A DNA stretch of 64,000 bases. Source: an uncultured Actinomycetes bacterium (lineage in GTDB: Bacteria > Actinomycetota > UBA4738 > HRBIN12). Both the position numbers and the translations under genes were made by a program. The DNA lies in NCBI GenBank assembly GCA_963826185.1, contig CAWGVY010000002.1, positions 18,705 through 82,704 on the forward strand, given 5' to 3'. Below are positions 11,490-58,253 of the stretch, in pieces. Positions within the stretch are counted from its first letter, which is position 1; each line of letters begins with the position of its first letter. The notes beneath the pieces were generated by a model. It saw only the letters and a list, made by a program, of their open reading frames with translations. It was not told the origin of the DNA and searched no databases.

Positions 11490-11564
11490 CGTGTTTCGAC
11501 TCCTCGTCGGTGGCTGACTGTACTCCACCCGGCCGGCCCGGCGGCGCCTGCTAGCATCCCGCGC

Positions 11565-28399: not shown

Positions 28400-29866
28400 A
28401 TGAGCCGCAACGCCCGACGATCCGATCTCTCGAGGCGCCAGTTCCTGAAGGCCGGCGCCGCCGGCACCGCGGCGGGCGCGGTGGCGCTCGGTGTCCCGAC
28501 GCTGGCCAGTGCCGCGCCGAAGCCGAAGATCCGCGGGCCCAAGCCTCGGACGGCGGGATTGATCACGGCTGGGCCGGAGATCGGTCTGCCGCCCGGGTTC
28601 AGCTACACCGCCTTCGGTCAGTTCGGCTCCGCCATGTCAGACGGATTCATCACGCCGCCGATCCACGACGGCATGGGTGTGTTCGACGCCGGCGGCGGGA
28701 CCTACCGGATCGTGCGCAACCACGAGCTGGGCGAGGGCAACGACATCGGTCCCGGACGCCCAACGGGTCTGAAGTCCACCGCGTGGGATCCCAAAGGCCG
28801 AGGGTGCACCACCACGATGACCGTTGACAACGACGGGAACCTGTTGGAGAGCTTCATCTCGCTCAACGGCACCGACACGAACTGTTCGGGCTCGCCGACC
28901 CCGTGGGACACCTGGCTGACCTGCGAGGAGACGACCGCCGGCGTGAAGTCCGGGCTGCAGAAGCCTCACGGCTACATCTTCGAGGTGGATGCCTTCGCCG
29001 ACGAGCCGGTGCTGACGAACCCGCACAAGGCGATGGGACGCTTCCTGCACGAGGCGGCCGCGGTCGATCCCGATACCGGCGTTGTCTACATGACCGAGGA
29101 CAACGGGCCCGATGGGTTCTACCGGTTCGTCCCCAAGACCTTCGGCAAGCTCAACAAGGGAACGGTTCAGATCCTGAAAGTGAAGGGGCAGCCCGGGTAC
29201 AACACGGTGATCGGACAGACGGTCGGTGAGGTCTTGCCAGCGAAGTGGGCGACGATCACCGATCCGGATCCGGCAGACGCCGAGGACCATCCCGACGCCG
29301 TCTATCGGGAGGGCCGTAGCAAGGGAGCCGCGCGGTTCCTGGGTGGGGAAGGCTGTACCTTCCGCGCCAACGGTGGTACCGACCCCGGCTCGTGTGTCTT
29401 CAACTCCTCCGACGGAGGTGATGCGGAACTCGGCCAGATCTGGCAGTACACGCCCACGAAGAACGTCGGAGATCTGGACGAGGATGGCGAGCTCGTCCTC
29501 CTCTATGAATCGGTCGACGAGGCTGCGATGCAGGGGCCCGACAACCTGTGCACCAGTCCCGGTGGAGCCATCATCGTGGCCGAGGACGGCGACGCCACGA
29601 ACTTCCTACGGGCGCTCCTTCCCGACAACACGCTGATCACGATCGGCGAGAACCTGGTGTCGGTGCGGATCGCCTACATCGATTCCTCAGGGATCGTGTT
29701 CGATCCCGACACGCCGTTCGACGACTACAACTTCACGACCGGCAACGGGATGTCGGAGTTCGCGGGATGCCGCTTCAGCCCCGACGGGAAGTTCCTGTTC
29801 GTGAACATCCAGGTGCCCGGGATCACGTGCGCGATCACGGGCCCGTGGGGCAGTATCGGACTATGA
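28400..29866 (+). CDS. Tat-exported DUF839/PhoX-family beta-propeller protein
   Basis: ORF 28400..29866(+): twin-arginine signal SRRQFLKAGAAG, then NHE, TPWDTWLTCEE, FSPDGKFLFVNIQ motifs. Confidence 0.75.
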   Translation: MSRNARRSDLSRRQFLKAGAAGTAAGAVALGVPTLASAAPKPKIRGPKPRTAGLITAGPEIGLPPGFSYTAFGQFGSAMSDGFITPPIHDGMGVFDAGGGTYRIVRNHELGEGNDIGPGRPTGLKSTAWDPKGRGCTTTMTVDNDGNLLESFISLNGTDTNCSGSPTPWDTWLTCEETTAGVKSGLQKPHGYIFEVDAFADEPVLTNPHKAMGRFLHEAAAVDPDTGVVYMTEDNGPDGFYRFVPKTFGKLNKGTVQILKVKGQPGYNTVIGQTVGEVLPAKWATITDPDPADAEDHPDAVYREGRSKGAARFLGGEGCTFRANGGTDPGSCVFNSSDGGDAELGQIWQYTPTKNVGDLDEDGELVLLYESVDEAAMQGPDNLCTSPGGAIIVAEDGDATNFLRALLPDNTLITIGENLVSVRIAYIDSSGIVFDPDTPFDDYNFTTGNGMSEFAGCRFSPDGKFLFVNIQVPGITCAITGPWGSIGL

Positions 29867-31222
29867 ACGAAGGGTCCGGCCCCGGCGGCGAGATCGAGGT
29901 GCCACGCATCCTGGCCGCGCCGCCGGGGCCGCGCACCCGCGACACCCTGGAGCGGCTGGGCAAGGTGCTGTACCGGGGCCTGGCCGACGAGCTCGGACCG
30001 TTCGTGATCCGTCGCAAGTCGGGGTGGGAGATCGAAGACGTGGACGGCAACGTCTACCTCGACTTCATCAGCGCCATGGCCTCGGTTCCGTTGGGAGCCG
30101 CGCCGAGAGGACATCACGGAGGCGGCGGTGGAGGCGCTCCGCCGCTACGGCAACGAGGACACCCACTACTTCGCGAACGAGTACGTGCTGCCGCTCGTGG
30201 AGAAGCTGCTGGCCGTGGCGCCGGGACAGCTCGCCCGTGTGGACATCGCCTTGAACGGCACGGAGGCCGTGGAGACCGCGATCCGCTTCATGCGCCGCGC
30301 CACCGGCCGGCCGATCGTGATCGGCTTCATGGGTGGCTACCACGGAGAGGCCGGGACCGCGGGCGCGGCCGGCGCAGAGGACGCGGAGATCTCCTACGGG
30401 TACCGGGCCCTGATGCCGGGCTTCGTGCACGTTCCCTACCCTAACCCGTACCGCACGCCGTTCCGGGCCCGACCCGGCGGCTGCGGCGACGGGACCGTGG
30501 ACTACCTCCGCGATCACGTGCTGCACCATGTCGTCGATCCCCGCGAAGTGGCGGGCTTCGTGATCGAACCGGTGATGGGTTCGGGCGGTTGCGTCGCGCC
30601 GCCCGAGGCGTTCTGGCGGGCGCTTACCGAGCTCTGCCACGAACAGGATCTCCTGCTGTGTGCCGACGAGGTGAAGACGGGGTTCGGCCGAACGGGACAC
30701 CTGTTCGCGGTCGAGCGCTGGGGGGTCGAGCCGGACCTGATGGCGTTGGGCAAGGCGATGGGTGGCGGCGTGATGCCGATCGGCGCCGTCCTGGGGACCG
30801 AACGCGCGATGGACTTCGGCGATCTCTCCACCGGTTCCACCTGGTCGTGGCTCCCCGCAGCCTGCGCCGCCGCGATCGAGACCCTCGACGTCTTCGAGCG
30901 CGAGCCGATCCTGGAGCACGTGCGGGCGCTGGAGGAGGAGGGCCGCACCTTGTTGGAGCCGTTGCGCGACCGCTACGCACCGGTGGGTGACGTCCGCGTG
31001 GTGGGCTGCTTCATGGCGATCGAGTTCGTGAAGGACCGCGAGACGAAGGAGCGCGATCCCGAGCTCGGCGAACGCGTCGCACGGGCCTGCATCCAACGCG
31101 GGTTGCTGGTCGACCTCACCTCGACATCCCTGCACCTGCAGCCCTCCCTCGTGACGCCCGTCGAGGTGCTGAGGCAGGGGGTGGCCATCTTGGACGACGC
31201 GATCGCCGAGGTCCTGGGGTGA
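29863..31222 (+). pseudogene. Class-III (omega) aminotransferase, one frameshift
   Basis: ATG 29863 (ATGA overlap with the phoX-like stop). The N-terminal 78 aa are in the frame of ORF 29548..30444 (...YLDFISAMASVPLG). The rest is in ORF 30128..31222 (...REDITEAAVEALRRYG...ADEVKTGFGRTG...). Frame change at about 30094-30104. Confidence 0.8.
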
Positions 31223-32103
31223 TCGAGCCGGAGGCGTTCGAGGAGCTGGCGGGTGGGCTGAACCATCCCGAGGGCGTCGCGTGGAACCCGGTCGACGGGC
31301 GCGTCTACGCGGGGGGCGAGGGCGGCGAGATCTACGCGGTCACCTTGGACGGGACGGTGCAGCAGGTGGCGTCGAGCGGTGGGTCGATGCTGGGCGTGGC
31401 CGTCGACGGTCAGGGGCGCGTGTACGCATGCGATGCGGGGCGAGGGGAGATCGTGCGTTGGGACCCGTCATCGTCGGCGTTGACGACCTATGCGCGCGGG
31501 GTTGCCGGCGAGGACATGGACTGCCCCAACGTGGCGGCCTTCGGGCCCGACGGCGCTCTGTACGTGACCTGCTCGGGCGAGGAAGGGCGGCCCGAGATCC
31601 TTCGGGTCCCCGCGGGCGGCCAGGTGGAACGGTGGGCCACGTCGGTGCCGGGCTATCCCAACGGCGCACTCGTGAGCCCCGACGGGGCTTGGCTCGTGGT
31701 GGTCGAAGCCCATGAGCAGCGCCTGGTCCGGATCCCGATCCTCAGCGATGGCGCGGCCGGGAAACCGGAGCTGGTGGCGGAGCTTCCCGATACGGACCCC
31801 GACGGCGTGGCTCTGGACGCCGAGGGACACTTCTGGGTCACGCTCTATCGACCCGACGGGCTGGCTCGGATCGGACCCCACGGCGAGGTCAGGATCGTGG
31901 TGGACGATCACCTCGCATCCACGCTCGATGCGCCCACCAACATCGCCTGGGTCGGCGAGGTGCTCGATCGCACGGTGGTCGCCAACGTGGGAGATACCTT
32001 CCTGGCCATCGCGGACCTGGGGGTCGAGGGGGCAGCCGCTGCACCACCCCATCCTCGACTGACGAAACGTCGTCCTGTGGCGGCCCGGACGGACTGTCGG
32101 TAG
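31219..32103 (+). CDS. SMP-30/gluconolactonase/LRE-family protein
   Basis: ORF 31219..32103(+), GTGA overlap with the upstream gene. Six-bladed propeller repeats (HPEGVAW, PNG, PDGVALD). Confidence 0.75.
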   Translation: MIEPEAFEELAGGLNHPEGVAWNPVDGRVYAGGEGGEIYAVTLDGTVQQVASSGGSMLGVAVDGQGRVYACDAGRGEIVRWDPSSSALTTYARGVAGEDMDCPNVAAFGPDGALYVTCSGEEGRPEILRVPAGGQVERWATSVPGYPNGALVSPDGAWLVVVEAHEQRLVRIPILSDGAAGKPELVAELPDTDPDGVALDAEGHFWVTLYRPDGLARIGPHGEVRIVVDDHLASTLDAPTNIAWVGEVLDRTVVANVGDTFLAIADLGVEGAAAAPPHPRLTKRRPVAARTDCR

Positions 32104-32115
32104 ACTGTCGACAGT
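32092..32115 (+). promoter_or_regulatory. Candidate GntR-type operator B: GACTGTCG-GTA-GACTGTCGACAGT
   Basis: GACTGTCG repeated at an 11-nt period. The second copy is part of the perfect palindrome ACTGTCGACAGT (32104-32115), which overlaps the GTG start (32114) of the grdE-like gene. Confidence 0.45.
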
Positions 32116-33372
32116 GTCATCCACGCTCGCTGATCTCGAGATCGCGACGTTCGCGGTCGACGAGGTCGTCGAGGGGGACCAGACAGGGCGGGACGGACGC
32201 ACCTTGGTGCTGTCGCTCCCGCAGCTCGCGGTCGGAGCCGGGGAGCCGGCGCTGGCGGAGGCCACGGTCGAGGTCATCCGTCCCGGCGATCCCGTTCGCA
32301 TCGCCAACGTCCTCGACGCCGTGTTGCCCGACGCCCGCGTCGACGATCCTTCGGCCACCTTCCCGGGCGTCGTCGGCTCCGCCGAGGCCGTGGTGGGTGG
32401 CCGGCTCCACCGGCTGACCGGCGTGACGGTGTTGCCCGTATGCGACTGGGCTGCCGCCGGATACGCGGACGCCGCGGAACTCCCCGACAGCTTCGTGGAC
32501 ATGGCAGGACCCGGCGCCGATCGGAGCCCGTTCGGCGCCACGACGAACCTGGTGGTGCGATGCGTCCCGCAACCGGGCGTCTCCGCCGCCGACGCCGATG
32601 CGGCGGTCAGACGGGCGTGCCTACGGCTCGCCAGTGACCTGGCCCTGAGCACGGCTGAGGACGAACCCGATGCCGTGAGGTCGATCGGGCCTGTGGCCTA
32701 CCCGCGATCCTTCCCTGGCCTCGATCGCGGTGATCCTTCAGGTCGCCTCGGAAGGCCCGTTGGTCGACACGTTCTGGCGCGGCTCGCCGATGCGCCCCCT
32801 GACGCCGAGGATCGCCGATCATCGCGAGGTGCTGGGAGGGTGTCTCACGAACGGCGCATACGACTGGCCGGGGGTGCGCAACGTGACCGCGCACTACCAA
32901 GACGGAGCGTTGCTCGTGCGGTGCTGCTCGAGGCCGACGGTGACCGTCTCCGCTACGCGGGCCTGGTGCTGACGCCCGGCTACCTGGACGACGCGGCCGA
33001 GAAGCGTCGGGCGGCGGAGCGCGCCGCCACGCTCGCGGACAGCTTGGGGCCGATGGTGTCGTGTGCACGACCTTCTCCTCCGGCAACTCACACACCGACA
33101 CGATGCTCACGGTCCGGGCGTGCGAAGCGATGCGGCCTGCGGACCGTGGCGCTCGTCGCCGAGACGAACGGTGGGCTCACCGATCACGTTCCCGAGGCCG
33201 ACTGCCTGGTGAGCACGGGGAACGAGGACGAGCTGGTGGAGCCGTGGAGCCCCGCTCGCGTGATCGGTGCGCAGGACGGTGCGCGAGCGGGCGAGCGGGT
33301 CCCGACCGTGCACTACCTGGCGGGCTGCACCGCAGATGGGCGACGCGCGATGGACGGCGGTGCCGGCATTGA
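32114..33372 (+). pseudogene. grdE: Glycine/sarcosine/betaine-reductase component B alpha/beta proprotein (GrdE/PrdA family), at least 4 frameshifts
   Basis: N-terminus in ORF 32114.. (LEIATFAVDEV...VEVIRPGDPVRIANVLDAV...FPGVVG). It continues in ORF 32730..32972 (IAVILQVASEGPLVDT...AHYQDGALL), then back to the first frame (LLEADGDRLRYAGLVLTPG). Next comes ORF 33061.. (ADGVVCTTFSSGNSHTDTMLTVRACEAM), then the first frame again (GLRTVALVAETNGG...). Shifts at about 32695-32725, 32920, 33046-33049 (G4 run) and 33133. The 3' end and stop are uncertain. Confidence 0.75.
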
Positions 33373-34659
33373 TCGTCCATTACCTGAACCAGTTCTTCGC
33401 GGGGTTGGGCGCGGAGGAGGCCGCCGGTCACGAGCCCGTCCGGATCGACGGGCCGGTGGGCCCGGGGCGCGGCCTGGTCGGCTGCCGGCCTTCGTCCCGA
33501 CATCACGCTCGCCTGCGGCGACGACTTCTTCGGTGAGCGGGAGGCCGAGGCGCTCGCCATCCTGGTGGGCTGGCTCGACGAGCTGCAGCCCGAGGTTCTG
33601 GTCTGCGGACCCTCGTTCGGATCGGGCCGCTACGGCTACGCGTGCGGGGTGCTGGCCCGCGAGGCAGGGCGACGAGGCATCCCGGTGGTCGCCGCGATGA
33701 CCGAGGACTCGCCCGGGGTGCTGGCCTCAGAAGGGGCGGCCTACATCGTGCCGACGGGTTCCAACGTCGCGGCGATGAAAGACGCCCTGCCCGCTATGGC
33801 GTCTCTGGCGTCTCGGCTCGCGGCCCGCGAGCCGGTCGGACCCGCCGAGCAGGAGGGCTACCTGCCCCGGGGGTTGCGGACCAATGTCTTCTCGGACCGC
33901 ACGGGGGCCGAGCGGGCGATCGATCTGTTGCTCGCGAAGCTCGCCGGCGATATCCGCACCGAAGTCACGCCGCGTGGGGATCGCGTGCCGCCTCCGCCGG
34001 CCTTGGCCGATCCCGGTGCGGCAACGATCGCTCTGGTGACCGAGGCGGGGTGCGTTCCCCAGGGCAATCCCGACCGCCTGCCGTCGCGTCACGCGCATCA
34101 GTGGCTCCGCTACGCGATCGCCGACCTCGACGGGCTGGATGCGCCGGCCTACAGATCCGTGCACGCGGGCTTCGACACCCACGCCGCGAACCTGGATCCG
34201 AACCGGCTCGTCCCGCTGGACGCGGTCCGCTCCCTCCAGCGTGCCGGGCGCATCGGCGACGTGTATCCGGCGTTCTTCACCACATCGGGCGTCGACACGC
34301 CCGTGGCCGTCGCCGCGCGCTTCGGCCAGGAGATGGCGCTGGAGCTCCGTGAGGCCGGCGTGCAGGCGGTGATCCTCACCGGGACCTGAGGCACCGGCAC
34401 GCGTTGCGGGGCAACGCTGGCGAAGGAACTCGAACGGGAAGGGATCGTGACCGTGTTCGTGACGGCGTTGCCGACGATCGCGCAGATGGTGGGCGCCAAC
34501 CGCATCCTGCGCGGTGTGTCGATCGCGCATCCCACCGGCGATCCCTCGCTGTCGGTGGGTGACGAACACGCCTTGCGCGAACGGATGGTGGGCCGAGCGC
34601 TGGACATGCTGGCGTCCGACGTCGGGCCGGGCACGGTGTGGGAACGGGAGGAACCGTGA
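33360..34659 (+). pseudogene. grdB: Selenoprotein B of glycine/sarcosine/betaine-reductase type (GrdB/GrdF/GrdH family): Sec-UGA at 34387-34389 plus one frameshift
   Basis: GTG 33360 gives (M)PALIVHYLNQFFAGLGAEEAAG. Frame change at about 33478-33486 into the frame of ORF 33565..34389. That ORF and ORF 34447..34659 are in the same frame, separated only by TGA 34387: ...GVQAVILTGT-U-GTGTRCGATLAKELEREGIVTVFVTALPTIAQMVGANRI... This is the conserved Sec context of GrdB. Confidence 0.85.
34401..34417 (+). promoter_or_regulatory. Candidate SECIS hairpin for grdB
   Basis: Perfect GCGTTGC-GGG-GCAACGC stem-loop starting 11 nt after UGA 34387-34389, with a G-rich apical loop. Confidence 0.5.
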
Positions 34660-35973
34660 GCGTGCGGCGCGCCGCCGTGACCGCGGCATCCTTCGTCCTG
34701 GAGCACGTTCCCGACCTGGTGCGGTATGGGTCCAAGCCGGCCAGGGAGCGAGGCGCAGCTGCCCGAGCTCCTGAGATCCCTGCGCTCGTTCGATGACGCG
34801 GTCGCCTATCCGCCGAACCAGGTGTTCATCGGCAACCTTGCACCCCAGGATCTTTGGGATCGCCCCAGGGACTGGTGGGAACACCCCCTCGAAGGCGCCG
34901 CCCCGACCGGCTCGACGGGCGAGGTGATGGATCCTGACGCCTTCTACGACCTGATGCGGGAGGTCGATCGGTTCGATCTGGTCACGTCCGAGTTCGTTCC
35001 CGAGTCCCGCGCGCTGCCCCTCTACCGCGGTACCGCGATCGTGGGAGCGATCGCCCCCGAGCATGAGCAGGACGAGTCGTTGAGCGCCTCCGTGTTGCTC
35101 GAGAACCTCGCGATCAAGGCGAGCGGCGTCCACGCCCTGCGCGATCTGCTCCAGCGAACGCAGATCGACCCCGCATCGATCACCCACGCGATCGGCTGTG
35201 GCGAAGAGGCCGTCGGCGACCGATACCAGCGCGGAGGCGGCAACATGGCCAAGGCGATCGCGGAGGAATGTGGTCTGCTGCGCGCTGCCGCGATCGATGT
35301 CAAGTCGTTCTGTGCGGCACCCGTTCACGCGATGGTCCTGGCCGCCGCCCTGATCGGGTCGGGCATCGAGGAGCGCGTGGTGGTGGTGGCGGGGGGCTCG
35401 CTGGGCAAGCTCGGGATGAAGTTCGAGGGAGCGCTCTCCAAGGGCTTCCCGATCCTGGAAGACGTACTGGCGGGGATGGCGATCCTCCTGGAGCCGGCGG
35501 ACGGCTCCAACGGACCCGTCCTGCGCACCGATGCGGTTGGCAGGATGCCGGTGCAGGCCGGCAACGCTCCCCAGGCTCAGCTGGAAGCGCTGGTGGGCTG
35601 CCCCCTCGACGCCCTGGGGATCACGGTCGGCGACGTGGGGACGTACGCCACCGAGATCCACAACCCGGAGATCACGCAACCGCAGGGCGGTGGCGACGTT
35701 GCGGACCGCAACTACAAGATGTTGGCCGGCCTGGGCGTGGTGCGCGGAGAGCTCGACCGGACCGACATCGCGGGGTTCGCGCGGGCACACGGGATGCCCG
35801 GGTTCGCGCCGACCCAAGGACACATCGCCAGCGCCGTTCCCTGGCTACCGCACGCGCTCGCCCGCATGCGGGCCGGTGAACTGCATCGAACGATGCTGAT
35901 CGCGAAAGGGTCGCTGTTCCTGGGACGCCTCACGCGTCTGTGGGACGGCGTGTCCGTGACGCTCGAGACCTGA
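34656..35973 (+). pseudogene. grdC: Glycine-reductase component C beta subunit (GrdC, thiolase-fold), one frameshift
   Basis: GTG 34656 (GTGA overlap with the grdB stop) gives VSVRRAAVTAASFVLEHVPDLVRYGSKPAR. Frame change at about 34745-34750 into ORF 34726..35973 (...LRSFDDAVAYPPNQVFIGNL...GGGNMAKA...). Confidence 0.8.
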
Positions 35974-35982
35974 GGAGGATCG

Positions 35983-36366
35983 ATGATCGATGCCACCGTG
36001 GACACCTTCCAGGAGCTCGCCGGCACCGGCGAGGTCTTGGTGGACATCTGGGGCCCGCAGTGCCAGCCGTGCCTCGCCCTGATGCCGGCGGTTGAGGCCC
36101 TGGCGGAGACCTACGGCGATCGCGTGCGGTTCGTGAAGGTGAACGCGCCGGAGAACCGGAGGATCTGCCGGGACCTGCGGGTGGCCGGCCTTCCCGCCTA
36201 CGTGACCCTGCGCGACGGGGTCGAGGTCGAGCGACTCACGAGCGCCGGGACCACGCCCAGGCAGATCGAGGACGCCATCGTCCGACTCGTGAACGGAGCG
36301 CCGGCGGTCGGTCCGCCGGTGCCGGAACACCTGCGCGAGCAGGCCGAGACCGCCGAAGGGGGGTGA
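35983..36366 (+). CDS. Thioredoxin-like protein with atypical active site WGPQCQPC
   Basis: ORF 35983..36366(+): thioredoxin fold with a CQPC dithiol, located between grdC and grdA as in clostridial grd operons. Confidence 0.8.
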   Translation: MIDATVDTFQELAGTGEVLVDIWGPQCQPCLALMPAVEALAETYGDRVRFVKVNAPENRRICRDLRVAGLPAYVTLRDGVEVERLTSAGTTPRQIEDAIVRLVNGAPAVGPPVPEHLREQAETAEGG

Positions 36367-36369
36367 CCC

Positions 36370-36828
36370 ATGGATCTACAGGGCAAGAAGGTGATCGCTC
36401 TCGGAGAGCGGGACAGCGTTCCCGGTGAGGCGATCGCCGAGGTGGCGCGTTCCGCCGGTGCCGAGGTGATCGAGGTGCGAACGGAGTGCTTCGTCTGAAC
36501 GGCGTCCGGTGCCATGGATCCGGACAACCAGGCGCTGATCAAACGGATCGTCGATGAGATCGGCAGCGACGACGTCGTGGTGATGCTCGGAGCCGCCGAC
36601 GCGGAGGCGGTCGAGGTCGCCGTCGAGACCGTCCGAGATGGCGATCCCGCCTGGGTGGGTCCATTGGCCGGGGTCCAGTTGGGACTCCCCGTGCTGCACG
36701 TGTTCGAGGACGAGGTGAAACGTCAGGCCGACGACGGCGTCTACGAGGCGCAGATCGGCTTCTTCGAGATGACCCTGGACGTCGACCAGGTGAAGGAGGC
36801 GATGAAGCGCGCCCGCGGCGAGACCTGA
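36370..36828 (+). CDS. grdA: Glycine/sarcosine/betaine-reductase selenoprotein A (Sec-UGA at 36496-36498)
   Basis: ATG 36370 gives MDLQGKKVIALGERDSVPGEAIAEVARSAGAEVIEVRTECFV-U-TASGAMDPDNQALIKRIVDE...GDPAWVGPLAGVQLGLPVLHVFE. The TGA is in frame with ORF 36514..36828. CFVUTA(A/S)GAMD is the GrdA active-site signature. Confidence 0.9.
36504..36525 (+). promoter_or_regulatory. Candidate SECIS hairpin for grdA
   Basis: GTCCGG-TGCCATGGAT-CCGGAC stem-loop beginning 5 nt after UGA 36496-36498. Confidence 0.45.
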
Positions 36829-36832
36829 GCCG

Positions 36833-37906
36833 TTACCGCCGCTTCGCGACCTCGAACTGGGCGGTCGTGGGAGCGGCGAGCGTCTGGTCGCCCGAATCCA
36901 ACGTGAAGTCGAACGATCCCATCGGGCCGGTGAGCGTCCAGGTCGTTCGCTTGCAGTGCGGTCCGGTCGCGACGACCTTCGCGCCCTTCGTGTACGTCAT
37001 CGTCCCACCCGGTTGCACGAAGGGTTGTCCGATGTCGCTCAGGATCTCCACCTGCGTAGGCGTCGCCGTGATCACCTCGGGATCGCCGAACGCGAACAGC
37101 AGGTGCGTGACGACCGCGACACCCACCTGCTCCTGCTCCTGGAGCACCAGCGCGTTCTCCTCCCTCGAAGAGAACGCGTCGATGATGTACCCGCCCATGC
37201 CGACCGGCTGCAGGCCGTCGAACGTGCGGCCCACGTCGCAGGTCGTGCCGAATGGGCACGGGTTGTCGGTGTACTTGTCACGCTCGATCGTCGCACGGAC
37301 GTGCGAGATGTTGACGTCCGAGGGCATCTGTGGATCGGAGTAGCCGGGGAAGAAGGTCATGGAGCCACGGAGCATGCCGCGACGCCGGCTGCGGGTCGTG
37401 AGGAGCGCGCCGGTCTTGGGACAACGGTCCTTCGATCGCGTGATCGGACCCAGACCTTCCAAGTCCATGAAGATGGCGCCGTAGCCGGGGATCAAGCCGG
37501 TGTCCAGCCCCACGTGACGCAACTGCGCGTCGAACTGCAGGGATCCCGCCGGCAGGTCGAACTCCCAGATGTGGACCTGCTCGGGGTGGGTTCCAGACGG
37601 GGCGGCGCGGTCCGCGATCACGCGCAGGTTCGGGTCCGAGGGGGGCGAGCCCGGTCCCGGACGGTACTGAGAGGCTTCAAGCGACCAGAAGTAGGGGGAC
37701 CCGTCCACCTTGAAGGGCGCCGTGGTGAGGGTGGTGTAGGAGGCTCCTCCCGCACGCCGATGCGGGGCTGACGGATGGATGAGCCGATCCATCCGCCGGG
37801 GCAGGTGGTGGGCCGCGGCGGCCGACGCTGCCTCGAACGAGGTCAGCATCAGGGCGCCCACGAGCACCAGGGCGGTCGATCGGATCCGGCGAGAAGCGGT
37901 CAGCAC
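36833..37906 (-). CDS. Secreted hypothetical protein (357 aa)
   Basis: GTG 37906 is preceded by GGAGGG. Signal-like VLTASRRIRSTALVLVGALMLTSFEAASAAAA. This is the C-terminal part of track ORF 36833..38845(-). No family recognised. Confidence 0.6.
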   Translation of the reverse strand: MLTASRRIRSTALVLVGALMLTSFEAASAAAAHHLPRRMDRLIHPSAPHRRAGGASYTTLTTAPFKVDGSPYFWSLEASQYRPGPGSPPSDPNLRVIADRAAPSGTHPEQVHIWEFDLPAGSLQFDAQLRHVGLDTGLIPGYGAIFMDLEGLGPITRSKDRCPKTGALLTTRSRRRGMLRGSMTFFPGYSDPQMPSDVNISHVRATIERDKYTDNPCPFGTTCDVGRTFDGLQPVGMGGYIIDAFSSREENALVLQEQEQVGVAVVTHLLFAFGDPEVITATPTQVEILSDIGQPFVQPGGTMTYTKGAKVVATGPHCKRTTWTLTGPMGSFDFTLDSGDQTLAAPTTAQFEVAKRR

Positions 37907-37974
37907 GAGGTCCCTCCACGTTCGACTCGACGATGAGGAAGGTATCGGCCGTGGGGGGGCGTTTCCACAACCCT

Positions 37975-38797
37975 CTAGCCCGTGAGGGGGCGATCGGGCG
38001 GCGAAGGAGGTGCGTCGGCGTCGTCGTACCAGCTGCCGCCGCCCAGCTCGCCCCCGTCCACGATCAGCGTTTGGGCGCTGATGAAACGAGCATCGTCGCT
38101 CGCGAGGAACAGCACCGCCATCGCCTGATCCCGGGGGGTCCCCGCGTGCCGCAACGGGATCCGGGAGAGATAGCGAGTGACCAGATCGCGTTCGCGGGGA
38201 TCGGCGGCCATCTCCGCTTCGGCCTCCGGGGTGATCGTCTCCCCCGGAGCGACGCAGTTCGCGCGGATCCCGTGGTGGCCCATCTCGTGGGCCACGGCCT
38301 TCGTTGAGCGCGACCAACGCCGCTTTCGACGCGTTGTAGATCGATTCGGGTGATTCGTTCTGGAAGGCGTTCGCGCTGGCGATGTTGACGATCGAGCCGG
38401 GGGAACCGCGCTCGATCAGGTGCCGGCAGACGTCCTGCATCAACAGCAGTGGGGCTCCCACGTTGACGGCGAAGCACGCGTCGAGATCTTCGGTCGTGAC
38501 GTCGAGCACCGGGCCGTCGGGCTGGGCGCCGGCGTTGTTGACCAGCACGTCGACCCCTCCTTGGGTCTCGATCGCGGCCGGGACGATCGTCCGCACCTGG
38601 GTCGGGTCCGCCAGGTCGGTGGCGTGGGTCCGCAGCCGACCAGCGTGGGGATGCGTGGCCGCCATGACCTCGAGCCCCTCCTCCAGGACGTCGGTGGCCA
38701 GCACGCTGGCGCCCTCATCCAGGAAGGCGTCCACGATCCCACGTCCGATCCCCCGGGCGCCTCCGGTCACGATCACGCGTCGTCCCTCGAACCTCAT
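37975..38797 (-). pseudogene. Short-chain dehydrogenase/reductase (SDR), one frameshift
   Basis: ATG 38797 gives MRFEGRRVIVTGGARGIGRGI...NNAG...YNASKAALVAL in the frame of ORF 36833..38845. It continues as TKAVAHEMGHHGIRANCVAPG...IVDGG in ORF 37975..38295. Shift at about 38303-38308. Confidence 0.8.
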
Positions 38798-38804
38798 CCT
38801 TCGT

Positions 38805-39933
38805 TCACCCCTCCTGGCCGGCTCGGACGACCCCGAGCGTGACATCCTGCAGCGCTTCGGGATCCAGCTCGACCCCGATTCCCGCGCCGTCCGGTGCGTC
38901 GATGCATCCGTCCTCTCCGGTCCGCAGGGTGCGCGTCACCCCGTATTCGAACGGTTCCGGCGGCACCGCCTGCTCGAAGAAGGACGTCCGTTCGAAGGCC
39001 AGCGCGGCGTGCAGGTTGGCGGCTTGGATCACGGTGTGGCCGTAGCTGGTGAGCTCGACCGGCAGGCCGGCTTCGGCCGCCACCTCCATCAGGGACGACG
39101 TGGGGGTCAGGCCACCCACGAACGACACGTCAAATCGGACGGCGTCCCAGGGGGGATCGCGGAGGATGTCGCGCAACAACCGCGGGTCCCAGACCGCGTC
39201 GCCGGCGGGAAGGATCGGTACGTCCTGCACGGCTCGGCCGAAGCGCTCGGTACCCGGGAAGATCGAAGTCGGGGAGGGGGGCCTCGAACCAGCGAGCCCC
39301 GATCTCCGCGCAGACCCGCGCCACGCCGAGGGCACCGTCGGCGTCGTAGCGGCCCTCAGCATCGTGCATCACCGTCAGGGAGCCGAACGCGGATCGGATC
39401 GCCCGCAGCAGGGCGGCGTCGCGATCGGGGTCGCCCCACGCGTGCACCTTGATCGCCCCGAACCCAGCCTGGACCTGATCCTCGATCGCGCTCAGGTAGT
39501 CCGTCTCAGCGTCGAAGGTGGGGATCGAGGCGTAGGAGGGCAGGGCGTCCGAGCGACCGGGGCCCAGGATCCGTCGCAACGGCTCGCCCGCGCGGCGGGC
39601 GGCCAGATCCCACAACGCGATGTCCACGGTGGACCGGACGGCGGGCGGGAACGGCGAGGTCCCATCCTCGCTGAGCATGGCCGCCACCCGGTTCCGGTCC
39701 TCGGCGTCGATCCCGATCAGCGGCGGGATCAGGGTCCTCAGGGTCTCCAGCGGCGCTCGATCCCAGTCCCCGTAGGTATCGGAGTCGTAGGCGCCGATGC
39801 CCGCGACACCGTCCTCATCGGTGATGCGCACGAGCGTCGTCGTCGTGAAGACCTCCGGTTGGAACGAGGTGTAGCGGAAGCGTTCCACGGGCGGCCCGAT
39901 CGCTCGTGCCTCCACGTCCCCGATCCTCGACAT
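38805..39933 (-). pseudogene. Enolase-superfamily enzyme (mandelate racemase/muconate lactonizing family), one frameshift
   Basis: N-terminus in ORF 39130..39933(-) (...GIGAYDS...IKVHAWGDP...MHDAEGRYD...WFEAPLP). C-terminus in ORF 38805..39362(-) (VPILPAGD...VRFDVSFVGGLT...). Shift at about 39234-39245. Confidence 0.75.
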
Positions 39934-39951
39934 CGCCCCTCCGGGTCATCG

Positions 39952-39969
39952 GTCAACAGTCGACAGTCG
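39952..39969. promoter_or_regulatory. Candidate GntR-type operator C: GTCAACAGTCGACAGTCG (reverse complement CGACTGTCGACTGTTGAC)
   Basis: Lies in the 53-nt divergent region between the enolase-SDR operon (start 39933) and the gntR gene (start 39987). Contains two ACTGTYGAC units on the minus strand. Confidence 0.5.
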
Positions 39970-39986
39970 CATGCTAGGCTACGCCG

Positions 39987-40673
39987 GTGACGGATGCGGC
40001 AACCTCCACGCCCCTGGCGCCGCTCGCGGCACCTCGATCGTTGGCCGAGGATGCAGCCGACCGCATCCGCGAGCAGATCCTGTCGGGGGGGTTCCATCAA
40101 GGCGAACACCTGGTGGAGGCCAAGCTCGCAGAGCAGTTGAACATCAGCCGTGGGCCCGTCCGAGAAGCCTTCAAACTCCTCCGCGCCGAGGGCCTCCTCA
40201 ACGAAGAGCCGCGCCGCGGCACGTTCGTGGTCAGCCTCACGGCGGACGACGTGCGTGAGATCTACGGGCTGCGCGCCGCGCTGGAGAGCCGCGCCGCGAG
40301 GCTGCTGGCCCGCGGTCGAGACCCGGGGGCGATCGCACGGCTCCGCGGGCTGGTGGACCAGATCGACGCCGCTGTGGCCACCGGCGACGCGGTGGCGGTC
40401 TCCAGAGCCGACCTCGCGTTCCATGAGGGCCTGTGCGAGCTCTGCGGGAACGCGCGGATCCTGGAGGTGTTCGACCGCTACGTCCCGATGCTCCGCGCCC
40501 TCCTCCGGCTGGACGAGCGGGTCCTGCGTTCGTTGGACGAGGTGTCGATGCAACATCGGCCGTTCGTCGAGGCGATCGAGGACGGCGACGAGGATCTTGC
40601 ATCCCGTCTGCTGGCCGAACACGCCGAGCACGCGGGCGAGCTGATCGCCGGCGTCGTGGCCACGAACGGATAG
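39987..40673 (+). CDS. GntR-family transcriptional regulator, FadR subfamily (FCD domain)
   Basis: ORF 39987..40673(+): wHTH LVEAKLAEQLNISRGPVREAFKLLRAEGLL plus a helical FCD effector domain (DLAFHEGL...HRPFVEAI). Confidence 0.85.
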   Translation: MTDAATSTPLAPLAAPRSLAEDAADRIREQILSGGFHQGEHLVEAKLAEQLNISRGPVREAFKLLRAEGLLNEEPRRGTFVVSLTADDVREIYGLRAALESRAARLLARGRDPGAIARLRGLVDQIDAAVATGDAVAVSRADLAFHEGLCELCGNARILEVFDRYVPMLRALLRLDERVLRSLDEVSMQHRPFVEAIEDGDEDLASRLLAEHAEHAGELIAGVVATNG

Positions 40674-40718
40674 CGCCGCCCACTCACGTTCCGCCCGCCG
40701 CCTGCCGATACGTTCAGG

Positions 40719-41597
40719 ATGATGACGCGAACCCGTTCGTTCCGGCTGTTGTCCGCCGTGCTCGTGTCCGCCTCGCTCCTGGCGGCCTGCGGCTCCGATG
40801 CACCCTCGCACGCGACCGGCGGGGTCGGGTCGGACGGGAGCGTCGACCCGGTGGCGATGATCCAGGCCGCTTCGGACAAGGTCCTGCAGGCCAAGGCCCT
40901 CCACATGACGTTCGGGATGGAGATCTCGGCGGCGGGTCAGACGATCTCGGGATCGGGAGAGGGCGACGTCTCGCTCGAGGGCCTGCAGCAGCACATGACC
41001 TTCCACTTCGACCGCATGGCAGGGCTGAGCGACGGGATGGACATGGAGTTGATCCTCGACGGCCACGTGATGTACATGCGGTCCTCGATGTTCTCCCAGC
41101 TCCCCGGCCTCGGTACCGACTGGGTCAGCATGGATCTGAACGACACCGTGCCGGGGTTCGAGCGCCTCGCGTCCTTCGGCACCGGCCAGAACGATCCCTC
41201 AGCGGCGTTCGGCTATCTACGCGGGGTCGAGGACGCCGAGGTGGTGGGCACCGAAGAGATCCACGGTGTGGAGACGACGCACTACCGAGGCACGCTGAGT
41301 CTCGAGGACGCGCTCGGCCAACTCCCCGAGGACATGCAAGCTGATTTCAGCCAGGTGATGGCCCAGTTCCGCCAGCAGTTCGGCACGGTCACGATGCCGT
41401 TCGACGTGTGGGTGGACGCGGACGGACAGCTGCGCCGCATGACCTACCGCATGGAGACCGACGGAGGTTCGATGGGGGCGGCCGGAGCGTTCTCGATGAC
41501 GATGACGATCGACATCACTCGCTACGCCGATCACCTGACGCTGGACCTCCCGGCCGCCGGCGACGTCACCGACGTCAAGGACCTGTCCTTCGGCTAG
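40719..41597 (+). CDS. Lipoprotein, LppX/LprG/LolA-like fold suspected
   Basis: ORF 40719..41597(+): lipobox LLAAC, and a repetitive beta-rich body with Met-rich segments. Confidence 0.55.
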   Translation: MMTRTRSFRLLSAVLVSASLLAACGSDAPSHATGGVGSDGSVDPVAMIQAASDKVLQAKALHMTFGMEISAAGQTISGSGEGDVSLEGLQQHMTFHFDRMAGLSDGMDMELILDGHVMYMRSSMFSQLPGLGTDWVSMDLNDTVPGFERLASFGTGQNDPSAAFGYLRGVEDAEVVGTEEIHGVETTHYRGTLSLEDALGQLPEDMQADFSQVMAQFRQQFGTVTMPFDVWVDADGQLRRMTYRMETDGGSMGAAGAFSMTMTIDITRYADHLTLDLPAAGDVTDVKDLSFG

Positions 41598-41613
41598 ACC
41601 TCAGCGGTGTCGC

Positions 41614-43008
41614 TCACGTGTTGGGGATGAAGACCTTCAGCAATTGACCTCCTTCGCCACGTGCCGAATCCGGTCGCAGACCGGGACCGGGCTGGCGGAC
41701 ATGGGTTCCATGAGACTCGACGTCGAGCAGCCACCATCCGCTGCCGAAGAACGCGCTGGCATCGATCACGCCCGAGGTCTCCCACACGCCCCTTCCGGCC
41801 AGATCGATCAGCCACTTGAACGGATCCACGCGCGCGGCCGCCGTGAGCGATCCGCTGCTGAGGTCGTAGACGAGCACACGCGCCCATCCCGATTCCGTGT
41901 TGTTGCGATCCTCCTGGATCACCAGGGCCTCGTCGCTGATGCCCAGGTTGTCCGGGTTCACCATGGCGTCGCCGGCGTCGCCATCTAGCACGACCTCGAG
42001 CGATGCCTTCCGCGGCTTCGTCGGGTCGACCGTGAGCCGGTAGATCCTGCCGTGGAGCGTCTCGCGTCCGTAGGAGCCGGTGTCGGAGAAGTACACGACG
42101 CCGGGGTCGTTCGGGTCCGCCGTGGCGTCTTCGATGCGCACGAAGGCGAAGGCGCCGACGTCGTCGCTGGCGGCGTTCAGGGCCGCCGGGCTCAGGGAAC
42201 CGGCGTGCGGGATCGTGACGAAATGGCCCTTCATGACGTCACCGAGCTGGATGTCGTCGGTGGAGGGATGTCCGTCGGTGTGACCGTTGGGCACCCAGGC
42301 GCGCAACGATCCGTCGCCGCGGATCAGGTCACCGAAGGTCTGGGAGAAGAAGGCGTACGCCTGCGACTTCCCGGCGTCGCCGTCCTCGGAGACGAACGTC
42401 ACGGCCCGTCGCAAGCCGTCAACGGGCACGACGTTCTCGTGGAACATGTGGCCGAGCCACGGCATCTCCCGGTGCTGACCGCTGATCGCGTTCATCCCCA
42501 CCGCCACCCCGTTGTGCGCCGACGTGGGGGATTCTTCGCCGGTGAAGTACCACGGGGTGCCCGTGTGCAGGGTGAACAGCGTGGACGAGCAGAAGGCCTC
42601 GTAGCCTTCGGAGCCGTCGATGGGATAGGTCGCGGCGTTGACCTCCCCGTTGTTGTCCAGCGTGAGGTGCGAGACGCGGGAGTTGGCCACGTCCCCGTCA
42701 CGCCGAGCGAGCTCGTGGTTCATGAAGAGCTCGATCGTGCTGGCGGAACTCCGGTACGCGCCGAGCCCGTCGGGCACGCCGGTCATCTGATACCCGAAGC
42801 GCTTCCCACCGATGATGTCGCCCGCCGACAGGAGCGGCTGGATCTGGACCCCCGCGGCGACACCCACGATGAAGGGACGGGTGGAGGTGACGAACCCTCG
42901 CGGGGCCACGCCATGGCCCGGCACGCGTGCCGACGCTGAGGGGAGCACCAGCCCCATCACGGCGGCCATGATGCCGACCACGCGTATCGTCCTTCTCGTA
43001 CCCCTCAT
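41614..43008 (-). CDS. Secreted DUF839/PhoX-like beta-propeller protein (second paralog)
   Basis: ATG 43008 within ORF 41614..43275(-): signal MRGTRRTIRVVGIMAAVMGLVLPSASA, then NHE and TPWYFTGEE motifs, with a VYFSDTG segment also read. Confidence 0.65.
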   Translation of the reverse strand: MRGTRRTIRVVGIMAAVMGLVLPSASARVPGHGVAPRGFVTSTRPFIVGVAAGVQIQPLLSAGDIIGGKRFGYQMTGVPDGLGAYRSSASTIELFMNHELARRDGDVANSRVSHLTLDNNGEVNAATYPIDGSEGYEAFCSSTLFTLHTGTPWYFTGEESPTSAHNGVAVGMNAISGQHREMPWLGHMFHENVVPVDGLRRAVTFVSEDGDAGKSQAYAFFSQTFGDLIRGDGSLRAWVPNGHTDGHPSTDDIQLGDVMKGHFVTIPHAGSLSPAALNAASDDVGAFAFVRIEDATADPNDPGVVYFSDTGSYGRETLHGRIYRLTVDPTKPRKASLEVVLDGDAGDAMVNPDNLGISDEALVIQEDRNNTESGWARVLVYDLSSGSLTAAARVDPFKWLIDLAGRGVWETSGVIDASAFFGSGWWLLDVESHGTHVRQPGPGLRPDSARGEGGQLLKVFIPNT

Positions 43009-43054
43009 CGAGAACCCCTTCCGCTCGAACGTGCTCGTGCGGGGGGTAGTGTCG

Positions 43055-43067
43055 GTCAACCGTTGAC
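43055..43067. promoter_or_regulatory. Inverted repeat GTCAAC-C-GTTGAC (candidate operator D), plus an extra GTCAAC at 43091-43096
   Basis: Lies in the divergent region between the DUF839-like gene (start 43008) and the potD-like gene (start 43133). ACCGTTGACA differs by one base from ACTGTTGACA at site A. Confidence 0.4.
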
Positions 43068-43132
43068 AATCTGCAAGTTCGACGGCTACGGTCAACTGGG
43101 CATCCGAGGGGCATGTCCGGCGGGGAGGATCG

Positions 43133-44256
43133 ATGAAGGCAAGGCGGTTCCTGATCGGTGCGGCGATGGCGACCGCCCTGGTCCTGGTGATGGCGGCCTG
43201 CAGCAACGAGGACGCGTCCTCCGGATCGAGCGCCGCCGGCACGAACCCCGCCGATCCCGCGTCGATCACCGGCAAGGTTCGCCTCTTCTCCTACTCAGAC
43301 GGCTTCGATCCCGAGTACATGTCGACCTTCTACGAGACCTATCCGAACATCGATCTGGAGACCGCCTCGTTCAACTCGAACGAAGTGGCCGTCGCCAAGA
43401 TCCAGGCGGGATTCCAGGCGGACGTGATCAACAGCTGCGTGGACGAGGCGACCCTGGAGATGGTGAACAAGGGGATGTACATGCCACTGGACACCTCGCG
43501 CCTGGAGAACTGGGATGCGATCTGGCCGGGCATGAAGATCCCTGCCCGGGGGTGCAGGTCGACGGCCAGGCGTACCTCGTGCCAGTGGATGCGGGCACCG
43601 CAGGGATCATGTACAACGCCGACGAGATCACCACGCCCCCCACGTCGTGGAAGGACCTGTTCGATCCACAGTACGAGGGGCGAGCGTCGCTGGAGGACCT
43701 GGCGATCACGGCGCTGGATGTCGGTGCCCTCGCCAACGGGATCGCGAACCCACTGGAGATGACCGACGAGCAGTTGGCACAGGTGACGCAGTACCTGAAG
43801 GATCACCGCGCATCAGTTCCGCACGTTCTACCAGGGGCAAGCCGACATCCGCGCGCAGTTCAAGTCCGGCGAGGTGATCATCTCTTCCGGCTACCCGGGC
43901 GACGCGAAGCAGATGCGAGAGGAGGACGGCGTGAACGTGCAGTTCGTGGCGGCTGAAGAGGGCCAGATGTTCTGGACGTGCGGGTACGGCATCAGTCCCG
44001 ACATCGATCCCGGAGAACCTGGACGCGGCCTACGCACTGCTGAACTGGTACACATCGCTGCCACCGCAGATCTACGCAGCCACCAACTGCAACTTCCTCG
44101 ACGTCGAACGAGGGGATCATCGACGCGGTCCCCAAGAAGGTCGTCCAGGAAGCCGCGCTGGATTCTCTCTACAGCCTGGACAACGCGATCCCCGCTAGCC
44201 CTCCAGACGACCGTGCGGCGTGGATCGCGGCGTGGACCGAGGTGAAGGCCTCCTAG
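43133..44256 (+). pseudogene. PotD-type (polyamine/amine) ABC substrate-binding lipoprotein, 4 frameshifts
   Basis: Lipobox VMAAC. Reading frames alternate between ORFs 43133.., 43063.., 43874.. and two unlisted frames. Segments read ...WPGMKI / PGVQVDGQAYLVPVDAGTAGIMYN...YLKDHR / QFRTFYQGQADIRAQFKSGEVIISSGYPGD...GISPDIDP / ENLDAAYALLNWYTSLPPQIYAATNCNFLDV / NEGIIDAVPKKVV...AAWTEVKAS. Shifts at about 43540, 43812, 44012 and 44106. Confidence 0.75.
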
Positions 44257-45173
44257 TGGCTCAGGCGGTCTCCGAGCGCGCCGGTCTGCCGGTCACGGAC
44301 CTGGCCGGGGCGGCCCGGTGGCGGCGTCGACGCGCCCTCAACGCCTGGGGCTGGCGCGCGTTCCTGGCGATCGTGATGTTGGCCCTGTTCGGCCCGCTCG
44401 TGATCCTGGTGCTGTTCTCGTTCAACGACGCCAGCGTGCTGGCGTTCCCACTGGAAGGGTTCACGCCCCATTGGTACGCGGACGCACTCGTCGGATGCCG
44501 ACGCTCCGCACGGCCATCGCGAACTCTTTCGCCGTCGCGTTGATCGTGGCGCCCTCTGAGCCTCGTGTTGGGGACCCTGGCGGCCTTCGGGCTCACGAGG
44601 TTCCGGTTCCGTGGACGGGGGCGGTCGGCGGACTGGTCGGCGCCCCGCTGGTCCTGCCGTGGCTCATCGTCGGCATCGCCGCGCTGATGGGCTACGCCAG
44701 GGCGAACATCGACCTCAGCCTCAGGACGGTGATCGCGACCCAGACGGTCTGCACGTTCCCGCTTGTGACCGCGATCGTGGCCGCGCAGCTCTTCCGCTTC
44801 CAGAAGGTGCAGGAGGAGGCCGCCATCGACCTGGGATGCACGCGCCTTGCAGGTACTGCGGCACATCATCCTGCCGCACATCTTCCCCGCTCTCGCGGCG
44901 GCGACGATCTTCGCGTTCACGTGGTCGTTCAACAACTACGAGATCAGCGCGTTCACGCTCGGGTTCCAACAGACGTTCCCTGTGTGGGTCTTCTCGTCGG
45001 TGCGCAACCCCGATCACACCGCCGTGGTGAACGCGATCTCGACCCTCATCTCGCTCGCACAGCTGCTGTTGATCTGGCTCGCGCTCCGTCTGCTCCGGTC
45101 GCGCTCGGGGGACGAAGGAGCGAAGAGCCTGATCGCCGGCACCGAGGCCGTGGCGGCGGGGGCGAAGACCTAG
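44256..45173 (+). pseudogene. PotC-type ABC permease, 4 frameshifts
   Basis: GTG 44256 (overlaps TAG 44254-44256). Segments read ...FSFNDASVLAFPLEGFTPHWYADAL / TLRTAIANSFAVALIVAP / LSLVLGTLAAFGLTRFRFRGRG / AVGGLVGAPLVLPWLIVG...EEAAIDLG / QVLRHIILPHIFPALAAAT... Shifts at about 44495, 44554, 44617-44621 (G5 run) and 44846. Confidence 0.75.
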
Positions 45174-47245: not shown

Positions 47246-47264
47246 AGGAGGAAGGACCGCAACC

Positions 47265-58192: not shown

Positions 58193-58253
58193 GGGAGGGT
58201 TATACCGCGAACGGCGCGAACCCACGCGCGGGGCCCCGCGGTACGGTGGCGCC

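Follow-up and report, generated by a model that had tools for sequence, protein, structure and literature searches.

What does a set of glycine reductase-like genes do when its usual partner genes are missing from the neighborhood? This question is raised by positions 32114-36828 (forward strand) of a 64-kb stretch of DNA from an uncultured Actinomycetes bacterium, referred to below as the window, where genes resembling grdE, grdB, grdC, a thioredoxin gene and grdA occur without grdD. Glycine-type reductases are strictly anaerobic amino-acid fermentation enzymes, and their GrdD component makes acetyl phosphate and hence ATP. The sequence evidence tips modestly toward the view that the region encodes a functional five-gene selenoenzyme module, which would form a distinct branch of the Grd family and would operate independently of GrdD and without a pyruvoyl group. 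Its substrate is probably a compound other than glycine, because three hallmarks of the classical enzyme are missing.

The five proteins of the locus are recognized by Pfam and NCBIfam in the order E-B-C-Trx-A, as an earlier note made from the sequence alone had proposed. Their boundaries were taken from frameshift-aware alignment against the intact orthologues of a relative, L002, whose syntenic cluster is unbroken and lies on an 876-kb contig. The features are as follows.

31219..32103, + strand: SMP-30/gluconolactonase-like (SGL) gene; tblastn match to L002 SGL1 (PF08450), 72% identity
32114..33372, + strand: grdE-like gene for the substrate-binding subunit of protein B, frame-broken; PF09338 in three frame pieces, motif TNGAYDW
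33369..34659, + strand: grdB, selenoprotein B; PF07355 at 356.6 bits and TIGR01918 at 398.9 bits, 74% identity to L002 GrdB
34401..34417, + strand: hairpin GCGUUG-CGGGG-CAACGC, resembling a selenocysteine insertion sequence (SECIS), 14 nt after the grdB UGA (RNAalifold)
34656..35973, + strand: grdC, protein C beta subunit, ketoacyl synthase III (KAS III)/thiolase-like; NF040746 at 514 bits, plus DUF5940
35983..36366, + strand: Grd-associated thioredoxin (Trx), active site CQPC; PF00085, 86% identical to L002 Trx
36370..36828, + strand: grdA, selenoprotein A; PF04723 at 193 bits and NF040748 at 196 bits, 90% identical to L002 GrdA
36504..36525, + strand: possible hairpin GUCCGG...CCGGAC after the grdA UGA; folds in the window

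Hallmarks of the module and its clade

Database homologues of GrdB number in the thousands; the best are 70-77% identical to the window protein and are typically truncated at the UGA codon. A scan of one genome per GTDB species found about 50 loci in metagenome-assembled genomes (MAGs) of Actinomycetota, several of them labeled Thermoleophilia, Gaiellales or Gaiellaceae, together with canonical loci from Bacillota and loci from a few other phyla. All sufficiently long Actinomycetota loci carry grdE-grdB-grdC-trx-grdA in intact form. The module is widespread in Actinomycetota and not peculiar to the window, and it represents an undescribed variant branch of known parent families. No description of this clade was found in the searchable literature.

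Canonical GrdE proteins carry the motif SGN-C-VSAC-DKN, in which cleavage at the first Cys of SGN-C-VSAC generates the pyruvoyl group; clade proteins have NGA-Y-DW (or GE-Y-HW) instead. Tyr occupies the pyruvoyl-precursor position in the window (TNGAYDW), in 41 of 41 alignable clade loci and in each of another 120 homologues from the database; the second Cys has also disappeared from every clade locus and from 117 of these 120. The cleavable Cys of GrdE and GrdG proproteins is found in neither the window nor the clade. The GrdG model (NF040793, cut-off 780) gives 75 and 35 bits on pieces of the window gene and 149 bits on the intact L002 GrdE, and the FarE model (NF053623, cut-off 675) gives 47 bits on a window piece and 92.5 bits on L002 GrdE. 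Searches of PDB sequences returned no homologue for GrdB or GrdE.

The subunits GrdI and FarE, which are not processed, are marked in the literature by the loss of these Cys residues. According to the published account of fluoroacetate reductase, FarE resembles the GrdI of betaine reductase in having no processing cysteines and in not being a proprotein, and the pyruvoyl/Schiff-base step is required for glycine and sarcosine (PMC10838667). The comparison with GrdI relies on that published description; on the side of the clade, the absence of a pyruvoyl-forming Cys is shown. A Tyr-type GrdE would argue against glycine, sarcosine and ordinary primary or secondary amines as substrates, and would favor substrates in which a carboxymethyl-type carbon bears a good leaving group. 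The loss of this Cys thus speaks against the proposal of the earlier note that the enzyme acts on a different amine. Conversion of the invariant Tyr itself to a carbonyl (quinone) cofactor is unlikely, because the same Tyr is present in presumably anaerobic Desulfobaccales and Dehalococcoidia MAGs.

The frame-corrected GrdB protein is a member of the generic family, with scores far above the cut-offs of PF07355 (22 bits) and TIGR01918 (65.45 bits). It falls short of every more specific model. On TIGR01917 (cut-off 602.2) the window protein scores 346 bits and two Gaiellales/Thermoleophilia-type relatives (L029, L032) score 386, compared with 624-655 bits for the canonical proteins of L063, L064 and L081. 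It scores 397 bits on the GrdF model (NF040794, cut-off 800), 379 bits on the GrdH model (NF040795, cut-off 775; 354-356 for relatives) and 71.9 bits on the PrdB model (TIGR04483, cut-off 300). The GrdB/GrdF motifs defined by Nobu et al. (PMC9751293) are replaced by GPSFGSGRYG, VHAGFDT and TTSGVDT.

The selenocysteine (Sec, U) motif itself is also altered. It reads UGTGTRC (UxxGxxC) in the window and 51 related loci versus UGTCTRC (UxxCxxC) in canonical loci, to whose GrdB proteins the window protein is 43-47% identical. In a neighbor-joining tree of GrdB the Actinomycetota clade has a bootstrap value of 95 out of 100, which rises to 100 out of 100 with inclusion of a Spirochaetaceae MAG (L051), and the canonical UxxCxxC clade has 95 out of 100. 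These data support placement of the predicted GrdB and GrdE proteins of the clade outside the glycine-specific group, and the pair is divergent, as the earlier note held.

GrdC belongs to its expected family (NF040746, cut-off 450), with 525 bits for L002 and 818 bits for the canonical protein of Thermobrachium celere (L055) alongside the 514 bits of the window, where only model positions of approximately 150-474 align well. The canonical motif EEACGDMNQRG corresponds to EEA[V/I]GDRY[Q/N]RG in the clade (EEAVGDRYQRG in the window). Clade proteins are also devoid of an internal insert of about 40 amino acids and of the C-terminal tail of about 30 residues present in canonical GrdC. A FabH-like Cys (FCAAP) is conserved in both types, and candidate His and Asn residues are retained in the clade; the match of L002 GrdC to a KAS III structure in the PDB (1mzj) is weak (E 1.5e-4). 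The two types are cleanly partitioned with respect to GrdD. DRY-type, tail-less GrdC occurs alongside GrdD in 0 of 52 loci, and the MNQ type (EEACGDMNQ) does so in 13 of 13.

Similar proteins are found outside Actinomycetota. In L059, L067, L076, L080 and L081, the combination of EEA[VI]GDRY and tail loss in GrdC tracks the absence of GrdD across several phyla, and MAGs of Desulfobaccales and Syntrophus again show the order E-B-C-Trx-A. Such a distribution suggests a second general Grd architecture that extends beyond Actinobacteria. L076 and L080 each carry an additional GrdE/GrdB-like pair a few kb upstream.

GrdA exceeds the cut-off of NF040748 (130 bits) and contains the CxxU motif with an in-frame UGA. 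The best NCBIfam match of the thioredoxin is the clostridial Grd-type TrxA model NF047697, at 91 bits (below the cut-off of 140). Its CQPC active site was considered as the mark of an unusual protein, as the earlier note had it, and was rejected: every Grd-linked thioredoxin examined has a non-WCGPC motif.

Missing partners were sought with tblastn, using as queries the canonical L055 proteins that NCBIfam confirmed as GrdX, TrxB, TrxA, GrdE, GrdB, GrdC and GrdD. GrdD has no match in the 64-kb window even at E<=10, GrdX is undetectable there, and window matches to TrxB are restricted to the FAD-binding motif of the adjacent oxidoreductase. Pfam searches of the remaining large window open reading frames (ORFs) returned housekeeping and catabolic genes, and no GrdD, TrxB, GrdX, sel genes, ackA or pta. 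The earlier statement that grdD and trxB are not in the window therefore stands. The window has no tRNA-Sec. Its sole tRNA is tRNA-Ala, which is also the only match in an Rfam scan of the window at gathering thresholds (with no SECIS family for comparison).

The comparison of gene neighborhoods suggested by the earlier note shows that this composition is conserved in relatives. No GrdD (NF040747), TrxB or GrdX is found within 10 kb of about 50 Actinomycetota clade loci, even at E<=10. All 13 canonical Bacillota loci in which the sequence reaches past grdC encode GrdD, and nearly all of them also have TrxB and GrdX. The arrangement that the earlier note named as fatal to its proposal, glycine-type GrdB and GrdE beside a grdD-trxB pair, is thus seen neither here nor in these related loci.

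Both selenoprotein genes contain an in-frame TGA, at 34387-34389 in grdB (LTGT-U-GTGTRCG) and at 36496-36498 in grdA (ECFV-U-TA, giving the CxxU motif CFVUTA). Protein conservation and the periodicity of GC content at third codon positions (GC3) continue beyond both codons. The grdB hairpin has six pairs and a G-rich loop and is conserved in relatives (RNAalifold, 18 distinct relatives), with one compensatory pair change from UA to CG in 7 of the 18 and one change from GC to GU. At the protein level, the compensatory pair involves one synonymous change, in an Arg codon, and one replacement of Thr by Val, which argues for constraint on the RNA. A stem-loop soon after the UGA and continued coding, as expected of a selenoprotein gene, are thus found for grdB. 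For the grdA hairpin, covariation across relatives is unsupportive, with 75% of cells paired, no better than in shuffled controls.

GrdB with Cys in place of Sec is reported to be rare in nature (PMC1794560). It occurs in some members of the clade, where the codon is TGT or TGC (L083:1278-2567 and L084:10001-11290). L084 keeps the UGA in GrdA, and its GrdB motif, CGTGSRS, has lost the last Cys too.

Reading frames of the locus

The GC content of the window is 65-72%. The ORF at 32114-33700 (528 amino acids), taken for grdE in the earlier note, does not correspond to a gene: its high-GC sequence is free of stops, and the reading passes through three or more frames of the true grdE and the beginning of grdB. 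The GC3 frame switches five times inside it, the PF09338 match is split over three frames, and the conserved GrdB N-terminus (IVHYLNQFFAGLG) sits within it in another frame. A tblastn match of GrdE in a single high-scoring segment pair (51% identity, one frame) is likewise misleading, as it crosses wrong-frame stretches, and it was superseded by the frameshift-aware alignment.

That alignment (64% identity to L002 GrdE) places shifts in grdE near 32696, 32916, 33038, 33127 and 33332 and its end at about 33371. At the grdE/grdB junction, near 33368, one inserted nucleotide gives ATTGA where relatives have an overlapping stop and start, ATGA. The start of grdB is at approximately 33369, probably a TTG where relatives have ATG, and not at 33565 or 33697 as previously proposed; one shift follows near 33471. 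The grdC gene begins with GTG at 34656, not at 34726, and has one shift near 34749. Its start overlaps the grdB stop as GTGA, in line with the overlapping stop and start codons described in the earlier note. The earlier gene model was wrong because the frameshifts had gone unnoticed. In the corrected grd frames the only in-frame stops are the two Sec UGA codons, and identity to intact relatives is 64-90%.

Indels are also found outside the grd genes, in genes for an aminotransferase (AT3), the SGL protein, a short-chain dehydrogenase/reductase (SDR), an enolase-superfamily protein (MR_MLE), a substrate-binding protein (SBP; four) and a permease (five), for a rate of about 1.2 per kb over 18 kb. 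Frame-changing indels extend across 29866-46052, for example at about 30103, 38305, 39231, 43538-44100 and 44490-44846. The window looks like an unpolished long-read assembly, in which any ORF-based reading is unreliable. A sister assembly (L001) is fragmented likewise, and relatives recovered in soil MAG projects of the same nanopore kind have intact genes. Errors in a long-read metagenome assembly, and not gene decay, are the most likely cause of the frameshifts in this copy, because neighboring genes are broken at a similar rate, the sister assembly is equally affected, and many relatives come from nanopore soil MAG projects. Elsewhere in the window, a tandem TldD/PmbA metallopeptidase pair (11382-14280, + strand) shows a 134-nt overlap of stop-to-stop ORFs that is probably a high-GC ORF artefact.

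Gene neighborhood and sub-clades

Actinomycetota loci fall into two sub-clades by context, a window type and a Gaiellales type. Upstream of window-type modules are genes for a CrtI/amine-oxidase-family FAD enzyme, a Tat-exported PhoX/DUF839 protein, a class-III aminotransferase and an SGL protein. Downstream there is usually a second SGL gene, followed by SDR, GntR and PotF-like ABC transporter genes. In the window, as the earlier note reported, the module starts 10 nt after the SGL stop, a spacing that is identical in L002, and export of the DUF839 protein is in keeping with its twin-arginine motif, SRRQFLKAG.

In contrast, in Gaiellales-type loci the five genes are accompanied only by an IclR regulator, and a caa3 oxidase assembly gene lies alongside. 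The five genes are thus a self-contained module, and the catabolic block is a conserved embedding specific to one sub-clade. The earlier description of an operon set in such a block applies to window-type relatives and not to the stand-alone modules behind IclR. Linkage to SGL genes is likewise confined to window-type loci. The flanking SGL proteins were considered as a substitute for GrdD and were rejected, because Gaiellales-type loci carry the module without any SGL gene.

NCBIfam searches of ten neighbors gave only generic or sub-threshold matches: a lysA-like decarboxylase, an Xaa-Pro-dipeptidase-like amidohydrolase, the CrtI-family FAD enzyme, a class-III aminotransferase, a glucose-1-dehydrogenase-type SDR, an enolase-superfamily protein and a PotF-like binding protein.

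Several parts of the neighborhood differ from L002 or lie further away. In relatives, a second SGL gene overlaps the grdA stop; at this place the window encodes, on the opposite strand (36833 to about 37950, - strand), a secreted protein of about 370 amino acids with a signal-peptide-like N-terminus, and this gene has no tblastn match to any L002 gene. Two ORFs with coding-like GC3 and no Pfam match lie between GntR and the ABC transporter (40674-41597, + strand; 41614-43290, - strand). They have no L002 counterpart and represent an insertion relative to that genome. A second class-III aminotransferase gene is found downstream of the transporter (47127-48596, + strand). About 21 kb further downstream are an acetyl-CoA-synthetase-like gene (ACAS_N plus AMP-binding), an acyl-CoA dehydrogenase gene and a thiolase/ChsH2-like gene (58125-60221, + strand; 53822-57263, - strand).

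One relative carries only part of the module. L015 (MFD00392.bin.2.405, 1.23-Mb contig) encodes a solitary clade-type pair of GrdE-like and GrdB proteins, and none of GrdC, Trx and GrdA is encoded within 10 kb of it. The pair may serve as an additional protein B, specific for its own substrate, that relies on a module located elsewhere.

Interpretation and comparison with known systems

A route consistent with these features can be outlined. GrdE and GrdB would bind a substrate of the X-CH2-COO- type, with a leaving group that needs no Schiff-base activation. X might be an onium group, for example quaternary ammonium, or a halide, by comparison with betaine reductase (GrdHI) and fluoroacetate reductase (FarBE). 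The GrdB selenol would displace X, and the carboxymethyl group would pass to the Sec of GrdA. GrdC, which is KAS III-like and has a conserved Cys, would then take the group as a thioester. These transfer and thioester steps are presumed to be kept because GrdA and GrdC lie inside the operon. The exit would differ from that of the classical enzyme because GrdC is of the tail-less DRY type and GrdD is missing: release would proceed by hydrolysis or to coenzyme A (CoA), and not as acetyl phosphate. Oxidized GrdA might be re-reduced by the dedicated thioredoxin, with electrons from a housekeeping thioredoxin reductase, whose gene is expected elsewhere in the genome. As a matter of speculation, the aromatic Y-D/H-W that has taken the place of the pyruvoyl group could favor binding of an onium group.

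Several points weigh against this reading of the locus. With five to six frameshifts in 1.25 kb, grdE is at the upper end of the local rate, so that real inactivation is conceivable, and the frameshift sites, which were located only approximately by alignment, show no clear homopolymer placement. The search for grdD, trxB and Sec-insertion genes covered 64 kb here and 20 kb per relative. The GrdB tree was built without labeled GrdF, GrdH or PrdB references, and exclusion from those families rests on the NCBIfam cut-offs. The family names of neighbors are generic and do not point to a substrate, and the linked transporter is PotF-like and not of the classical betaine type. The proposed substrate type and acyl-group fate are predictions from sequence features.

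Three other explanations can be weighed on this evidence. If the frameshifts were real, the cluster would be decaying in this organism, as might be read from the five to six shifts in grdE, the single shifts in grdB and grdC, the destroyed grdB ATG and the absence of obvious homopolymers at these sites. The public gene call for the 200,886-bp contig also has the same broken grdB fragment (P0004, 274 amino acids). Such decay has little chance of being the explanation, as a similar frameshift density is found in at least seven unrelated neighbors, including the SBP and permease genes, corrected frames are interrupted only by the Sec codons and remain similar to intact relatives, and the sister assembly is equally fragmented. 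An ordinary glycine (or sarcosine) reductase with grdD and trxB elsewhere in the genome is very improbable too. Public annotations do name relatives glycine, sarcosine or betaine reductase, all core components but GrdD are present and pass generic or GrdA/GrdC cut-offs, and the grdD search was limited to locus neighborhoods as opposed to whole genomes. However, the pyruvoyl-precursor Cys for amine activation is replaced by an invariant Tyr, the UxxCxxC motif is altered, and scores are far under the GrdB and GrdF cut-offs. GrdC, moreover, is systematically unlike every GrdD-partnered GrdC, and some 50 neighborhoods are free of grdD and trxB.

The module might instead be a glycine-betaine reductase proper, orthologous to GrdH/GrdI and yielding trimethylamine. 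An unprocessed alpha subunit is a known property of GrdI (PMC10838667), and the aromatic residues at the pyruvoyl site would suit cation-pi binding of an onium group. Betaine is also plentiful in soil. This assignment is nevertheless improbable, since the GrdH score is the lowest of the three specific ones (354-379 bits against a cut-off of 775), neither a BCCT/OpuD nor an OpuAC-type transporter is nearby, the linked transporter being PotF-like, and no trimethylamine-handling genes were recognized in the vicinity.

The reading modestly favored here, a functional GrdD-independent and non-pyruvoyl branch, can be extended to a broader and rather doubtful proposal. Aerobic soil Actinomycetota (Gaiellales, Thermoleophilia and relatives) might widely carry an unrecognized, self-contained Grd branch that has neither pyruvoyl group nor GrdD. 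It would reductively break a C-X bond in a carboxymethyl compound of the onium type or another non-amine kind and pass the acyl group from GrdA via the KAS III-like GrdC directly to CoA or water. If this were true, oxic soils would harbor a new pathway for acquiring carbon or for detoxification. The module is common in high-GC soil Actinomycetota MAGs, beside genes for oxidases and cytochrome oxidase assembly, and if functional it would imply reductive C-X cleavage in oxic soils and wider use of selenium by these organisms. The clade also offers a natural experiment on the roles of GrdD and the pyruvoyl group. Current automatic annotation as glycine, sarcosine or betaine reductase is unsupported by the present evidence.

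Among known systems, the module has the generic features of selenoprotein B, GrdA and GrdC, and it departs in the features tested from glycine, sarcosine and betaine protein B, FarE and PrdB. Glycine reductase, GrdABCDE plus GrdX-TrxB-TrxA, from Peptoclostridium acidaminophilum and Clostridium sticklandii (represented here by T. celere), has homologous GrdE, GrdB (Sec), GrdC and GrdA (Sec, CxxU). It also shares with the module a dedicated non-WCGPC thioredoxin and a SECIS-like hairpin after the grdB UGA. Unlike glycine reductase, the module has no GrdD, TrxB or GrdX, and its order is E-B-C-Trx-A instead of X-TrxB-TrxA-E-A-B-C-D. Its GrdE has lost both processing Cys residues (with Tyr at the precursor site), its GrdB has UxxGxxC, and its GrdC is without the EEACGD Cys, the insert of about 40 amino acids and the tail. 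D-proline reductase is more distant. PrdA and PrdB are remote homologues of GrdE and GrdB with a Sec-containing B subunit, but the Prd system has a pyruvoyl PrdA and no GrdA or GrdC, both of which are present in the module.

MAGs of Desulfobaccales, Syntrophus and Chloroflexi (L076, L080, L081, L067) contain operons that match the module in gene order, encode a tail-less GrdC of the DRY type and have no neighboring grdD; no characterization of this type was found in the searchable literature. Their GrdB proteins are 47-48% identical to that of the window and fall outside the Actinomycetota clade in the neighbor-joining tree. Tyr in GrdE and UxxGxxC in GrdB are also present in L076 and L080 and in the Desulfobaccales loci, whereas L081 and L059 retain the canonical Cys in GrdE and UxxCxxC in GrdB.

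Betaine reductase (GrdH/GrdI) has an alpha-type subunit that, as predicted for the module, is made without a pyruvoyl proprotein; this points to a substrate that either is unable to form a Schiff base or has no need of one (PMC10838667). Betaine reductase differs from the module in that the GrdH cut-off is missed by a factor of two and in its transporter context. In addition, the classical betaine enzyme uses a shared set of GrdA, GrdC, GrdD, Trx and TrxB, of which GrdD and TrxB are missing from the module. Fluoroacetate reductase of Cloacibacillus porcorum (Synergistota) has a FarE without processing cysteines and a FarB without part of the CxxC protection motif, and it demonstrates that homologues of Grd protein B can act on non-amine X-CH2-COO- substrates (PMC10838667). 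The far operon includes a radical-SAM protein and an antiporter and borrows GrdA, GrdC and GrdD from elsewhere, whereas GrdA, GrdC and Trx are encoded inside the operon here. On the best reading of these likenesses, the predicted enzyme would be more like betaine or fluoroacetate reductase than glycine reductase.

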